Origin: a virus
Taxonomy: Duplodnaviria; Heunggongvirae; Uroviricota; Caudoviricetes
Direction: 5' to 3' (one strand)
Virus record (IMG/VR): IMGVR_UViG_2703718839_000008
Length of the DNA stretch: 42,613 nucleotides
The position numbers were made by a program, and so were the translations under genes. The first letter of the stretch is position 1, and each line of letters opens with the position of its first letter. Of this stretch, positions 7,351-11,339 are shown in pieces. The notes under the pieces were generated by a model, which was given only the letters and a program-made list of their open reading frames with translations, did no database searches and was not told the origin of the DNA.

Positions 7351-8004
7351 TCAAAAATCCATTATTACTTGTTTGACAAGACCAACTATTCTGCAGTTCT
7401 CACCGCATTCAATAGTTTTATAGTTAGGATTTAGTGGGACGAGATACCTGTTCGGCCAGTCCTCAACAAATTTTTTGAGTGTCGCTTCTTGCCCACCATT
7501 GATATGGGCAACAACGATTTTTCCGTTAATACACTCTGTATCAATAATATCTGGCTCTACGATAACGATAGAACCTTCTGGTATCGATGGTGAGCCGAGG
7601 GGATTGGTCATTGAATCACCACGGACCCGTAGTGCAAATGCCATTTCTGATACAAGGGCGGTAGTATAAACCCACTCTTCAGCATCTTCTTTCCTGACAC
7701 CAGGCTCCGTCATTGTCCATGAACCCGCCTGAACCCACGAGATGAGGGGGACTTTTTTAACTGCGAATATTTCAGGTTTTAGATTTATCTTTGGTTCAGG
7801 CGAGCCTTTTCCGCTAACAAGCCACAGAGGATCGCATTTAAGTGCGTTGGCTAGGGCTTGAAGGTTGGCTCCATTTGGTTGGTAGTCGTCCTTTTCCCAT
7901 CCAGTAACCGTGACACGGTTCACACCAGTCAAATCAGCCAGTGCTTGTTGTGTCAGGTTCAGTTCTTTTCGCCTTTGGCGAATACGATCACTCATGTTCA
8001 TCAT
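7351..8004 (-). CDS. CI-type prophage repressor (N-terminal HTH, C-terminal S24 LexA-like autopeptidase)
   Basis: N-terminal ...LNLTQQALADLTGVNRVTVTGWE HTH; C-terminal GDSM Ser and downstream Lys; divergent from the Cro-like gene with operators between. Confidence 0.85.
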   Translation of the reverse strand: MMNMSDRIRQRRKELNLTQQALADLTGVNRVTVTGWEKDDYQPNGANLQALANALKCDPLWLVSGKGSPEPKINLKPEIFAVKKVPLISWVQAGSWTMTEPGVRKEDAEEWVYTTALVSEMAFALRVRGDSMTNPLGSPSIPEGSIVIVEPDIIDTECINGKIVVAHINGGQEATLKKFVEDWPNRYLVPLNPNYKTIECGENCRIVGLVKQVIMDF

Positions 8005-8067
8005 GTAGGCAATCCTACCACATGCCCATGTAGGATTCTTGACATTGGTATGTTGGATATCCTACAT
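8003..8067. promoter_or_regulatory. OR operator cluster (three sites)
   Basis: atgtaggcaatcctacca (8003-8020), atgtaggat half-site (about 8029-8037), atgttggatatcctacat (8050-8067). Confidence 0.6.
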
Positions 8068-8068
8068 T
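8039..8068 (+). promoter_or_regulatory. pR-like early rightward promoter
   Basis: TTGACA (8039-8044), 18-bp spacer, TACATT (8063-8068), overlapping an operator. Confidence 0.55.
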
Positions 8069-8099: not shown

Positions 8100-8297
8100 A
8101 TGCGGAAATCCGACGTGATTAATTATTTCGGCGGAGTTTGTAAAACCGCCGAAGCCCTAGGTATTAAGCATCCGTCTGTTTCAGAGTGGCCTGAGATTAT
8201 TCCTGAAGGCCGAGCGTACCAGTTAGAAAAAATTACTAACGGGAAACTGAAAGTTGACGTGTCTTTATATCAAAAGACTAACAGTGCTGCGGCATAA
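8100..8297 (+). CDS. Cro-like / YdaS-like small HTH regulator
   Basis: 65 aa; first gene after pR; GGGAGA RBS. Confidence 0.6.
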   Translation: MRKSDVINYFGGVCKTAEALGIKHPSVSEWPEIIPEGRAYQLEKITNGKLKVDVSLYQKTNSAAA

Positions 8298-8324: not shown

Positions 8325-8909
8325 GTGGGTAAAGAACCTGAATGGAAAGTTGATAAACAACCAGCATGGCTGGTGGCAGCAATACGAAGAACGATTGCTG
8401 ATTTACCTCATGGCTATGAGGAAGCAGCAGAAATTCTTGGTTTGTATAAATCTGATGATATCACCCCAGCAAAAGATCAATTGCATAACAGACTGCGTAG
8501 CGGTGGGGATCAAATTTTTCCACTTGAGTGGGCCATGGTTTTACAGGATGCCAGTGGTACCAGGCATGTAACAGATGCAATAGCCCGTCGTAGTAATGGG
8601 GTGTTTGTGCCGCTGGTGGTCATTGATGACATTGACAATGGTGACATTAATCAGCGGCTGATGGAGTCAATAGAATGGATTGGCAAGCATTCCCAGTACT
8701 TACGCAAGGCAACTGCTGATGGAGTTATTGACCAAGCTGAGCGTGAGCAAATCGAAGAGAACAGCTACCAAGTAATGGCGAAGTGGCAGGAGCATTTAAC
8801 ACTGTTATTTCGTGTTTTTTGTGCGCCGGAAAAGAGTAACGCCCGCGAGTGTGCAGCTCCGGGCGTCGTGGCGTCGATTGCTTCTGGTTGTGGAGAAACT
8901 AACGCATGA
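8325..8909 (+). CDS. CII-like / YdaT-like early regulator, 194 aa
   Basis: GTG start with GAGGAA RBS; position after Cro-like gene; family assignment from recall only. Confidence 0.4.
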
Positions 8910-9244
8910 ACAGTTTAACAACACACTACCGTCGCTCGCAACTGATTGCGCTTCCTGTACCGGGTGGAAAAGCGAAGGTGGAGTATTGCTATGCAGTGAA
9001 TGTACCAGGTGACAGGGAAATTGTAACCCACAGCTTTGCAGAGTGGGCTGTGGGGGATTTCAACCGGCAGAAGGAGACAGTCCTTTGCGACAAGTTAACC
9101 GCTGGTTCAAAGATCACTACGGAGTGCCCGTCAGAGTCATTCGTTGGGAACCGGAAACACAACGGGTTATCTACCTCCGCGAAGGCTATGAGCATGAGTG
9201 CTTCAGTCCGCTCGAACAGTTTCGTCGTAAATTCAGGGAAATAG
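8906..9244 (+). CDS. Hypothetical protein (frame uncertain; alternative overlapping frame 9043-9264)
   Basis: ATGA overlap with upstream stop; ends 10 nt before the O-like start; the 3' half looks more protein-like in the other frame. Confidence 0.35.
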
Positions 9245-9253
9245 AGGTCGGTC

Positions 9254-10195
9254 ATGAGCACTAAATTAACCGGCTATGTATGGGATGGTTGCGCAGCGTC
9301 AGGCATGAAATTATCCAGCGTGGCAATTATGGCCCGCCTGGCTGATTTCAGTAATGACGAAGGTGTGTGCTGGCCATCAATTGAAACCATTGCCCGCCAG
9401 ATTGGCGCGGGGATGAGTACCGTCAGAACGGCTATCGCACGGCTGGAAGCAGAAGGCTGGTTAACGCGTAAGGCGCGTCGCCAGGGTAACCGCAATGCGT
9501 CGAATGTTTATCAGCTTAACGTTGCGAAGCTTCAGGCAGCGGCATTTTCTCAACTGTCAGATTCTGACCCGTCAAAATCTGACGCATCAAAATCTGACCC
9601 GTCAAAATTTGATGCGTCGAAATCTGGCAAAAAAGCGGGTTTTCACCCGTCAGAATCTGGCGGGGATCCGTCAGTAAAATCAAAACATGATCCGTCAGAT
9701 AAAAAACCTTCTCGTCCGGACGCTTCGCAACCGGACACGCAGACGGCTGAACAGGATTTTTTAACTCGCCATCCTGATGCGGTTGTATTCAGCCCTAAAA
9801 AACGCCAGTGGGGGACGCAGGATGATTTGACCTGCGCACAGTGGCTCTGGAAAAAAATCATCGCCCTGTACGAGCAGGCTGCCGAATGTGACGGCGAGGT
9901 GGTTCGTCCCAAAGAACCGAACTGGACAGCCTGGGCAAACGAAATTCGCCTGATGTGTGTGCAGGATGGTCGTACTCACAAACAAATCTGCGAGATGTAC
10001 AGCCGCGTCAGCCGCGATCCGTTCTGGTGCCGTAACGTGCTCAGCCCGTCGAAGCTGCGGGAAAAATGGGATGAGCTTTCCCTGCGCTTATCGCCGTCCG
10101 TCAGCACATACACAGAAAAACGTGAAGATCCGTACTTCAAATCCAGTTACGACAACGTGGACTACAGCCAGATCCCGGCAGGATTCAGGGGGTGA
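9254..10195 (+). CDS. Replication initiator (lambda O-like role) with origin iterons inside the gene
   Basis: N-terminal winged-helix-like region; internal DNA direct repeats encode repeated SDPSKSDASKSDPSKFDASKS linker. Confidence 0.6.
   Translation: MSTKLTGYVWDGCAASGMKLSSVAIMARLADFSNDEGVCWPSIETIARQIGAGMSTVRTAIARLEAEGWLTRKARRQGNRNASNVYQLNVAKLQAAAFSQLSDSDPSKSDASKSDPSKFDASKSGKKAGFHPSESGGDPSVKSKHDPSDKKPSRPDASQPDTQTAEQDFLTRHPDAVVFSPKKRQWGTQDDLTCAQWLWKKIIALYEQAAECDGEVVRPKEPNWTAWANEIRLMCVQDGRTHKQICEMYSRVSRDPFWCRNVLSPSKLREKWDELSLRLSPSVSTYTEKREDPYFKSSYDNVDYSQIPAGFRG
9556..9662. repeat. Origin iterons: 15-bp-spaced direct repeats of GTCAAAATCTGAC-like units
   Basis: Copies starting near 9556, 9571, 9586, 9601, 9616 and 9648. 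Confidence 0.65.
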
Positions 10196-10197
10196 TC

Positions 10198-10686
10198 ATG
10201 AGTCTTTTGAATGAAGTTCAGAAATTCATTGAAGCCCATCCGGGGTGTACTTCCGGAGACATTGCGGATGCTTTTGCAGGTTACTCACGGCAGCGCGTTC
10301 TGCAGTCAGCAAGCAAGTTACGTCAGAGTGGGCGTGTGGCTCACCGTTGTGAAGGAGATACACGCAGACATTTCTCGCGCCTGACTGAGAGAGCGCAGGA
10401 GCCGGAACCACAACCAGTTCGTGAAACCAGACCTGTGCGCAAGTTCTATGTCGGCACTAACGACCCCCGGGTGATTTTGTGCCTGACCCGCCAGGCTGAA
10501 GAACTGGAGTCGAGGGGCTTATACCGTCGTGCTGCAACGGTGTGGATGGCGGCATTCCGTGAAAGCCACTCCCAGCCAGAACGAAACAATTTTCTGGCGC
10601 GTCGTGAACGGTGTTTACGGAAAAGCAGTAAGCGGGCTGCATCAGGTGAAGAGTGGTATCTCTCAGGGAATTACGTGGGGGCTTAA
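10198..10686 (+). CDS. Putative regulator with PerC-like C-terminal motif
   Basis: AEELESRGLYRRAATVWMAAF resembles the PerC/Pch signature; ATG just after O-like stop. Confidence 0.35.
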   Translation: MSLLNEVQKFIEAHPGCTSGDIADAFAGYSRQRVLQSASKLRQSGRVAHRCEGDTRRHFSRLTERAQEPEPQPVRETRPVRKFYVGTNDPRVILCLTRQAEELESRGLYRRAATVWMAAFRESHSQPERNNFLARRERCLRKSSKRAASGEEWYLSGNYVGA

Positions 10687-11339
10687 TGAGTAATAAATAT
10701 TGCCAGGCGCTGGCGGAACTGCGGAACAAACCAGCCCATGAACTGAAGGAAGTGGGCGATCAGTGGCGCACGCCGGACAACATTTTCTGGGGAATTAACA
10801 CCCTGTTTGGCCCGTTTGTTCTGGATCTGTTCACTGACGGTGATAACGCCAAATGTGCTGCGTATTACACGGCGGAAGACAACGCGCTGGCGCATGACTG
10901 GTCAGAACGCCTTGCGGAGCTTAAAGGTGCTGCCTTTGGTAATCCCCCATACAGCCGCGCCAGTCAGCATGAGGGGCAATACATCACCGGCATGCGTTAC
11001 ATCATGAAGCATGCCAGTGCCATGCGTGATAAAGGCGGGCGCTATGTTTTCCTGATCAAAGCTGCCACCAGCGAAGTGTGGTGGCCGGAAGATGCAGATC
11101 ATATTGCTTTTATTCGCGGGCGTATTGGTTTTGAACTGCCTGCCTGGTTTATCCCGAAGGATGAGAAGCAGGTGCCGACAGGCGCTTTCTTCGCTGGTGC
11201 TATTGCTGTTTTCGACAAGACCTGGAAGGGACCGGCAATCAGCTACATCGGGCGCGATGAACTTGAGGCATGTGGTGAGGCCTTTCTGGCGCAGGTTCGC
11301 CAGCAGGCAGAAAAACTGGTCAGGGAGATGGCGGCATGA
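10686..11339 (+). CDS. Phage N6-adenine DNA methyltransferase (Dam-like), orphan
   Basis: GNPPYS catalytic motif; no adjacent endonuclease. Confidence 0.7.
   Translation: MSNKYCQALAELRNKPAHELKEVGDQWRTPDNIFWGINTLFGPFVLDLFTDGDNAKCAAYYTAEDNALAHDWSERLAELKGAAFGNPPYSRASQHEGQYITGMRYIMKHASAMRDKGGRYVFLIKAATSEVWWPEDADHIAFIRGRIGFELPAWFIPKDEKQVPTGAFFAGAIAVFDKTWKGPAISYIGRDELEACGEAFLAQVRQQAEKLVREMAA

Follow-up and report, generated by a model that had tools for sequence, protein, structure and literature searches.

In phage lambda, the origin of replication lies inside the gene of its own initiator, in the part encoding the linker between the N-terminal DNA-binding domain and the C-terminal domain of protein O, where several iterons of dyad symmetry are followed by an A/T-rich region. 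The N-terminal domain together with its iterons on the one hand and the C-terminal part on the other hand are swapped as separate modules. The same layout, with a homologous C-terminal domain, is found in the replication initiator gene (positions 9254-10195, + strand) of a viral DNA stretch of 42,613 nucleotides (IMG/VR record IMGVR_UViG_2703718839_000008), hereafter called the window, which represents a temperate phage or prophage of the lambdoid group, SfII/SfIV/SfV type. In this study, we propose, with a probability of about 0.6, that the window carries a lambda-type ori within its initiator gene, at which the host DnaB-DnaC would be recruited through a tail mimicking DnaT. Whereas lambda has four iterons of 18 bp about 20-24 bp apart, the window has six of 13 bp at a spacing of 15 bp; its N-terminal domain belongs to the HTH_36 instead of the Phage_rep_O family, no P gene is present, and the protein ends in a DnaT-like ..IPAGFRG and not in the ..TDWIYGVDL of lambda O. 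The window origin would be a new specificity group of the well-known lambda-type origin, and its loader-less setup is a known, unexplained variant.

Lambdoid phages that have a single O homolog without helicase or loader have been described as 'O-only' modules, with phage LLS as the example. They make up 34 of 314 Enterobacterales lambdoid phages, and their replication 'is not yet understood' (Genome Res 2025, PMC12315714). LLS-type phages grow better with RecBCD and have a high-Chi signature (PMC12315714). The high and strand-biased Chi density is shared by the window, in which GCTGGTGG occurs 19 times versus 1.7 expected by shuffling, with 16 copies on the + strand and 3 on the - strand (positions include 2603, 4159, 8369, 8612, 11961, 13110 and, further on, 39815). 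The LLS relative mEp460_4F5 of the same paper has the C-terminal domain, the tail and the PerC-like neighbour in common with the window. The main text of PMC12315714 does not speak of iterons; what the present analysis adds is the predicted anatomy of the origin and the DnaT-like tail.

The second point of reference is the restart protein DnaT (primosomal protein I) of E. coli, which shares its extreme C-terminal peptide with the window protein, and several tail-bearing phage initiators are followed by a DnaC paralog, mirroring the dnaT-dnaC operon. Unlike DnaT, the window protein lacks both the N-terminal domain of DnaT and its three-helix DNA-binding domain (PF17948, no Pfam match); it would be a sequence-specific origin binder, whereas DnaT is a restart factor. 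Initiators ending in a DnaT-type tail also occur in the Rac prophage (YdaU-YdaV), in Gifsy-2 (O/DnaC-like), in the Shigella phage 75/02 Stx and in the Salmonella phage SPN1S. The latter has no loader gene, as in the window, whereas the other three encode a DnaC-like loader of their own, and YdaU, 75/02 Stx and SPN1S differ from the window protein in that the C-terminal domain of DnaT can be recognised in them (34-63% identity). The nearest precedent for a DnaT-type tail on an O relative is DopC of the domesticated lambda O/P pair DopC/DopE (Brezellec et al. 2017, PMC5509034). DopC is O-derived and combines an HTH_36 N-terminal domain with a DnaT C-terminal motif, but it is chromosomal, lacks iterons and is paired with a P-derived protein, whereas the window has iterons and no P.

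The window protein (313 amino acids) matches phrog_391 ('replication initiation O-like', E = 8e-136) and Pfam HTH_36 at residues 23-70, with no informative match in NCBIfam. At the level of the gene, Escherichia phage vB_EcoM-720R4 has an identical copy (100%, 'DNA replication protein O'), and identity is 98.8-98.9% to the counterparts in SfIV and SfII, Shigella phages in which the annotation reads replication protein, primosomal protein or O-family protein. Four parts can be distinguished: a winged-helix N-terminal domain, an iteron-encoded linker, a lambda-O-type C-terminal domain and a DnaT-like tail. The N-terminal domain is of the HTH_36 family (PF13730) and not of the Phage_rep_O family (PF04492) of lambda O, to which its identity is about 6%. 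The C-terminal domain aligns with lambda O by BLASTP (E = 7e-26, 31% identity over 216 amino acids), has the motifs WGT..DLT.A.W, PN...WAN.IRLM, DGR.H and NVLSP.KLR.KW in common with it and is modeled by AlphaFold2 as helical (predicted local distance difference test, pLDDT, 84-91), confidently so at residues 189-278.

Between the domains of a lambda-type initiator at least three to four dyad-symmetric iterons would be expected, and six are present here, in the DNA encoding the linker of residues 103-166. The stretch 9545-9700 contains ...ctGTCAGATTCTGACccGTCAAAATCTGACgcATCAAAATCTGACccGTCAAAATTTGATgcGTCGAAATCTGGC... and encodes the peptide ...SDSDPSKSDASKSDPSKFDASKSGKK...; its unit is a near-perfect palindrome, GTCAGA-T-TCTGAC, as expected of a site bound by a dimer, and reads in frame as x-Ser-Lys-Ser-Asp (ccG TCA AAA TCT GAC). 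A repeat search located copies starting at 9557, 9572, 9587 and 9602 with 15-bp spacing and a further copy 33 bp on, while Tandem Repeats Finder reported 4.3 copies of period 15 at 9563-9626 (81% match, score 86) and a period of 30 with 88% match and a score of 100. When up to two mismatches are allowed, GTCAAAATCTGAC has seven matches at six positions, all within 9556-9661 and with the one at 9556 read on both strands; no second array of this motif appeared elsewhere in the window in that scan. Dinucleotide-preserving shuffles of the whole window gave 1.03 +/- 0.95 matches and reached seven in 0 of 100 cases. The sixth iteron is embedded in TTTGACCCGTCAGAATCTGGCGGGGATCC, a flank conserved to about 80-99% per column among 65 non-identical homologous sequences. 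The first-pass annotation had described at least five direct repeats at 15-bp spacing, plus degenerate copies, at 9545-9700 inside an O-like gene, where they would encode a repetitive Ser/Asp/Lys linker. The array is borne out by the repeat search, Tandem Repeats Finder and the shuffles, its O-like setting by the matches to phrog_391 and to the C-terminal domain of lambda O, and the linker by its composition, AlphaFold2 modeling it as disordered.

The region of iteron 6 (9646-9662, CCGTCAGAATCTGGCGG, encoding PSESGG) also resembles a stretch of lambda (L007, ~662-683; TTCGTCAGAGAATTCTGGCGAA, encoding SSENSGES) that is located just right of lambda's AT-rich region and that we take to be the ori palindrome. 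In the relatives L100, L105-L114 and L111, a lambda-like TCGTC.CAGAATTCTG[GA]CGAA follows the A-rich block. The palindrome of lambda may be a relic of an iteron of the window's iteron-6 type.

Three lines of comparison agree with a role of the repeats as DNA elements and suggest that selection is on the repeat DNA and not on the peptide. The first is codon usage in 184 non-identical S-x-S-[D/E] units, defined at the protein level in initiator genes from about 90 loci of many enterobacterial genera. The first serine is TCA in 175 of 184 units (background in the same genes 28%), the second TCT in 166 of 184 (background 16%), lysine AAA in 106 of 106 (background 72%) and aspartate GAC in 139 of 171 (background 44%). 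Synonymous positions fixed to this extent, in proteins whose N-terminal domains are only 70-90% identical, do not follow from a constraint on the peptide only. The second is covariation with the N-terminal domain: all 66 full-length initiators whose N-terminal domain is at least 70% identical to that of the window carry one to six copies of GTCAAAATCTGAC, most of them with the helix motif STVRT, while three initiators with an STVI helix carry four to five copies of a different palindrome, GTTCAGAATCTGAAC. Unrelated N-terminal domains go with other repeats, with periods of 18-24 bp overall in mEp460, Stx2a_1447 and lambda: repeats of 23-bp period in mEp460, GTGCAGGAGATTCACC with a period of 21-24 bp in Stx2a_1447 and Ayreon, and the four 18-bp iterons of lambda. 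Natural hybrids exist in both directions, as Citrobacter phage phiNP combines the window-type N-terminal domain and iterons with another C-terminal domain, and phage mEp460 the window-type C-terminal domain with another N-terminal domain and iterons. This comparison of 92 loci and phage hybrids links iteron specificity to the N-terminal domain, which probably sets it.

The third line is length variation. The 80 near-identical viral contigs, of no use for diversity but useful for copy-number steps of 15 bp, have gene lengths of 942 nt (76), 957 nt (3) and 972 nt (1), corresponding to six, seven and eight iterons, and more distant homologs differ in length by multiples of five amino acids and have from about one to about nine units. 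We consider it very probable that the repeats are the initiator-binding iterons of an origin. In two E. coli chromosomes (L096, L097) the match covers initiator residues 79-313 only, so that the N-terminal domain is gone and six iterons are kept; they are possibly origin- or initiator-defective prophages, and the same may hold for the homologs P0015, P0034 (recorded from 128 contigs and named from Salmonella enterica) and P0069.

The iterons are directly followed by an A/T-rich region, as in lambda, which is shorter and less extreme than lambda's. The lowest G+C content of the initiator gene, 0.325, is reached at 9670-9709 (40 nt), with a strong excess of A over T. Among the 65 non-identical sequences, GATCCGTCAGTAA within this block is nearly invariant, also at third codon positions with four-fold degeneracy (CCG for Pro, TCA for Ser and GTA for Val), and it is unchanged even where the iterons differ strongly (L101-L106, L012). 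Conservation that does not depend on the specificity of the initiator is in keeping with a DNA-unwinding element or with a host-factor site, and the block at 9665-9708 is our candidate for the unwinding element. Both of its GATC sites (9665-9668 and 9689-9692) are retained across genera, and the gene of a Dam-type methyltransferase is found within about 1 kb of them, in many relatives directly after the initiator gene. As the GATC density of the whole window is nothing unusual (159 versus 164 expected), only the cross-species conservation of the two origin sites stands out. The origin of plasmid P1 depends on Dam methylation; that the phage enzyme may act on the origin GATC sites and so provide methylation control is speculation.

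The last part of the initiator, the tail peptide YDNVDYSQIPAGFRG, relates it to the host. It ends in ...DYSQIPAGFRG, where E. coli DnaT ends in ...RDVNTVSEPDSQIPPGFRG, and over SQIPAGFRG versus SQIPPGFRG eight of nine residues are identical, in both cases at the extreme C-terminus. The homologs P0094, L012 and L159 come closer still to DnaT with ..CVNHISEPDTEIPPGFRG. The isoleucine, proline, glycine, phenylalanine, arginine and final glycine are invariant or nearly so in DnaT orthologs (at least 107 of 108), so that the window protein carries the invariant ..I-P-x-G-F-R-G-COOH of that family. When the profile of its C-terminal domain was compared with that of DnaT by hhalign, only the tail aligned (last 16 columns, E = 1e-3), indicating that the protein is not a member of the DnaT family but has the DnaT terminal motif on a lambda-O-type domain. 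All 113 records that two queries of the phage database gave for the tail have it at the end of a gene with a replication-protein annotation. A recent transfer of DNA from host dnaT was considered and rejected, as the tail nucleotide identity of only 60-68% indicates a conserved peptide and not recently transferred DNA.

Among phages, the tail-coding DNA itself is shared. The last 76 nt of the initiator gene (10120-10195) are 96-97% identical in Stx2a_1447, Stx2c phages, cdtI and Ayreon, whose initiators are otherwise unrelated, indicating a mosaic recombination junction just upstream of the tail; in both phages inspected, Stx2a_1447 (98% amino acid identity) and Ayreon, the PerC-like gene follows. 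The whole DnaT C-terminal domain with its tail is present in the phage initiators SPN1S (L179:1745-2560; 63% identity to E. coli DnaT over 94 amino acids, tblastn 3e-37), Rac YdaU (L176:620-1477; 40%) and 75/02 Stx (L178:1475-2563; 34%). These three suggest an exchange of this C-terminal module between DnaT and phage initiators, dnaT-dnaC resembling a domesticated phage initiator-loader pair. In the searchable literature, the motif PPGFRG or PAGFRG has no occurrence, nothing relevant links YdaU with DnaT, and no report was found of a DnaT-type tail that strictly excludes lambda-P genes.

Such an exclusion is what we observe across 92 loci (80 at species level taken from GTDB genomes, the other 12 from phages or genomes), in which homologs of P, DnaC and DnaB were sought up to 3 kb downstream. 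Initiators with a GFR tail account for 59 of the 92 loci; 58 of these have no loader, one has a DnaC homolog (L161, 51% identity) and none has lambda P. On the other hand, a Phage_lambda_P gene lies downstream in all 11 loci with a lambda-type W..W tail (TDWIYGVDL, HWNSPEAWENTL, EWNTAQGWEDVL, WIDGIENDL). This is well illustrated by a natural tail swap in Pantoea (L008), where a homolog that shares 76% identity with the window protein up to residue ~282, thus including N-terminal domain, iterons and C-terminal domain, differs only in its last ~30 residues and is followed by a P gene. C-terminal contexts of at least four unrelated kinds (lambda-O type, Phg_2220_C, Stx2a_1447 type and the genuine DnaT C-terminal domain) carry the GFR tail, and this gives the association of tail and loader some independence. 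Where a tail-bearing protein has a loader, it is always of the DnaC type, as in host dnaT-dnaC, Rac prophage ydaU-ydaV (YdaU ending in ..LRQVNTVSLPDSAIPPGFRG), L161, Gifsy-2 and 75/02 Stx. Seven further tail-bearing phages (phiNP, Stx2a_1447, Ayreon, SPN1S, mEp390, Tritos and ST64B) were inspected and none had a loader. We tentatively suggest that the last ~10-18 residues of lambdoid initiators form an exchangeable plug choosing the helicase-loading route, with W..W leading to lambda P and ..IPxGFRG to a DnaC-type loader of phage or host. A different end is seen in L166:3777-4679, which has the window-type N-terminal domain and iterons, finishes with ...GGTDDDFI and is followed by a DnaC-like gene. 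This end resembles DDDIPF, presumably the C-terminal motif of SSB, and may be another kind of host-mimic tail.

No loader gene was recognised in the window itself. A PHROGs scan of the early-region open reading frames (ORFs) gave no helicase or loader homolog, and with three P proteins (that of lambda among them), DnaC and DnaB as tblastn queries against all 42.6 kb the best E-value was only 0.19; detection is defined by these five queries and PHROGs. Where lambda has P, the window has a PerC-like gene (PF06069 at residues 98-149, E = 7e-9, 36.2 bits versus a cut-off of 22.6; also phrog_1324 'transcriptional activator'). The first-pass annotation was thus right that no loader gene follows and that the next gene is PerC-like, and with its lone O homolog the window falls into the 'O-only' class, already described as unexplained (PMC12315714). 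The PerC-like gene is just one of several alternative neighbours. After the initiator gene of the 59 tail-bearing loci there is a PerC-like gene in 22, a Dam-type gene in 18, DUF977 in four, a D12 methylase in three and other genes in the rest; the PerC-like gene is missing from phiNP, Klebsiella, Pantoea and others, and the Dam-type gene is the immediate neighbour in 26 sampled loci (cluster 1). An obligate partnership with the PerC-like protein was rejected on the count of 22 in 59, and its gene is probably outside the replicon.

Taken together, we would place the phage origin at 9556-9708, inside its own initiator gene in lambda fashion. Initiator dimers would bind the six palindromic 13-bp iterons by their N-terminal winged-helix domains, and the duplex would open at the adjacent conserved A-rich block with its two GATC sites. 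As the phage has no recognised helicase loader, the initiator would bring in that of the host: beyond the lambda-O-type C-terminal domain, the flexible tail (...DYSQIPAGFRG) would mimic the invariant C-terminal tail of DnaT and most likely contact the host DnaC loader or the DnaB-DnaC complex, whereby DnaB could be loaded at the origin without P. The origin activity, the unwinding site and the binding partner of the tail are inferred here from sequence comparison. The odds that the tail is a helicase-loading adaptor are in our estimate even, and the assignment of DnaC or DnaB-DnaC rather than PriA as its partner, taken from gene neighbourhood only, is rather doubtful. A possible reliance on host DnaB/DnaC, as proposed by the first-pass annotation, gains support from the DnaT-like tail and its distribution relative to loader genes.

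Several observations weigh against this proposal. A third class of tail, neither GFR nor lambda-type, ends in ..IWQQAAEQAA.. or ..IWKECAQRQQG..AA and is carried by about 20 related initiators (L105, L107, L108, L110, L112-L114, L130, L145, L149, L151, L155, L156, L163, L167, L168, L170, L173 and L174) of Providencia, Proteus, Yersinia, Rahnella and others; no P, DnaC or DnaB homolog was detected in their loci, so that the GFR tail is not the sole solution. The loci are phylogenetically related, and the raw counts therefore overstate the association of tail and loader. The AT-rich block is short and only moderately enriched in AT (G+C 0.325 over 40 nt), and P0015, P0034 and P0069 have only one or two repeats, so that either few iterons suffice or these prophages are defective. 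A novel loader lacking recognisable similarity to known ones is possible. In addition, the literature on DnaT consulted here, including structural work, defines no function or contact for the extreme tail and describes the recruitment of DnaB-DnaC by DnaT as unknown, while the DnaT C-terminal domain docks on PriA via a conserved hydrophobic interface (PMC13377028), so that the partner of the tail could be PriA and not DnaC.

The latter observation leads to the main alternative, which we regard as unlikely and in which the tail recruits PriA, or PriA-PriB, and a restart-type primosome assembles at the opened origin or at recombination D-loops, with host DnaT and DnaC acting downstream. Next to the PriA interface, the hydrophobic and invariant IPPGF of the tail is in favour of this alternative, as is the Chi excess, which marks lambdoid phages for which a dependence on RecBCD and recombination has been proposed (PMC12315714), since recombination-dependent growth needs PriA-dependent restart. 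However, the literature consulted does not place the extreme tail in the PriA interface, and tail-bearing phages often have a DnaC-type loader of their own directly downstream (five cases) and never PriA; as the tail is the sole element common to those otherwise unrelated initiators, a contact between initiator and loader fits better. The repeats could also bind the initiator for autoregulation, copy control or exclusion, with the true origin elsewhere or mainly no fixed origin. Iteron-binding initiators commonly autoregulate, as in iteron plasmids, Chi sites are very numerous in the phage, and some homologs have very few repeats. We nevertheless hold this to be improbable in view of the lambda ori layout with iterons in the O-gene linker and the A-rich block behind them, the lambda-O-like C-terminal domain, the lack of any other array of the GTCAAAATCTGAC motif in the window, and an adjacent block that is conserved whatever the iteron type, which suits an unwinding element better than an operator.

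The two remaining alternatives have very little probability. A low-complexity coding linker that is tandemly duplicated and has no role as DNA would account for the disordered Ser/Asp/Lys/Pro segment and for the drift in copy number, but not for synonymous codons fixed far beyond background where N-terminal domains are only 70-90% identical, for palindromic units, or for repeats that switch with the type of DNA-binding domain, and is already disfavoured. It is just as hard to accept the PerC-like protein (162 amino acids), or another unrecognised phage protein, as the missing loader or adaptor. In favour of the former, its gene overlaps the stop codon of the initiator gene and accompanies the tail in mEp460, Stx2a_1447, Ayreon, SfIV and ST64B, and the lambda-O-type C-terminal domain is the region usually credited with P binding. 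Yet in most tail-bearing loci the place of the PerC-like gene is taken by others, among them Dam and D12 methyltransferases, DUF977, a ParB-like helix-turn-helix protein, DUF1627 and DUF1064, and the domains of its product are of the transcription-regulator type. A P protein supplied by another prophage in the same host, as a variant of this idea, is implausible for phages that are isolated and propagated alone.

The origin region and its surroundings are listed in Table 1. The Cro, CII-like and initiator genes lie on one strand downstream of a predicted pR-like promoter, from which rightward transcription would cross the origin in lambda fashion. Past the Dam-type methyltransferase, the gene order continues with a LexA-DNA-binding-domain protein, RusA, a KilA-N-type regulator, a DUF968/HNH protein and a Q-like antiterminator. 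Upstream of the initiator gene, two ORFs overlap in different frames on the + strand, each with a family match: one of 112 amino acids (8906-9244), which matches phrog_1170 and equals the annotated SfIV gp40, and one of 73 amino acids (9043-9264), which matches Pfam DUF4222 (E = 3e-19). Either gp40 is misannotated in the database, or both ORFs are joined by a frameshift. In Pantoea (L008 and L013), too, the initiator gene is directly preceded by a DUF4222 gene.

Table 1. Coordinates of the predicted origin, of the parts of its initiator gene and of the neighbouring early genes in the window
Feature	Position	Strand	Basis or remark
CI-like repressor	7351-8004	-	ORF list, Pfam, PHROGs
pR-like promoter, upstream of cro	8039-8068	+	consensus scan only: TTGACA-18-TACATT, 10/12 matches
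P22-type Cro	8100-8297	+	ORF list, Pfam, PHROGs
CII-like gene	8325-8909	+	ORF list, Pfam, PHROGs
Replication initiator gene, 313 aa	9254-10195	+	ORF list, Pfam, PHROGs
N-terminal winged-helix DNA-binding domain, aa 1-99	9254-9550	+	presumed recognition helix ...GAGMSTVRTAIARLE; AlphaFold2 confident
Iterons 1-5, 13-bp near-palindromes, GTCAAAATCTGAC-like	9556, 9571, 9586, 9601, 9616; span 9556-9628		spacing exactly 15 bp
Disordered inter-domain linker, aa 103-166	9560-9751	+	AlphaFold2 pLDDT < 50; encoded by predicted origin DNA; 5-aa length steps among homologs
Iteron 6, GTCAGAATCTGGC	9649-9661		best-conserved copy across species
Conserved block GATCCGTCAGTAAAATCAAAACATGATCCGTCAGATAAAAAACC: two half-iterons, two GATC sites, A-rich tract	9665-9708		directly after iteron 6
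GATCCGTCAG pair and A-tract			elements of the predicted origin region
Degenerate iteron copies	9665-9679, 9679-9697, 9689-9703		repeat search
C-terminal domain, aa ~175-278, lambda O C-domain homolog	9776-10087	+	BLASTP
C-terminal tail REDPYFKSSYDNVDYSQIPAGFRG, DnaT-like short linear motif	10121-10192	+	comparison with E. coli DnaT
PerC-like gene, 162 aa, winged helix and PerC domain	10198-10686	+	Pfam, PHROGs
Dam-type N6-adenine methyltransferase, phage-encoded	10689-11339	+	Pfam Dam, E = 1e-45

In summary, the iteron array helps to annotate phages of the SfII, SfIV, SfV, ST64B, mEp460 and Stx2c type. About one in ten enterobacterial lambdoid phages has an initiator but no helicase or loader, and for these the pattern of tail versus loader offers a concrete and testable hypothesis, together with a suggested annotation rule by which the C-terminal tail of the initiator predicts the loading pathway of the phage. 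If true, the tail plug would explain how 'O-only' lambdoid phages replicate, and the invariant tail of DnaT would be the element by which the restart primosome hands over DnaB-DnaC, an open step of restart in E. coli.

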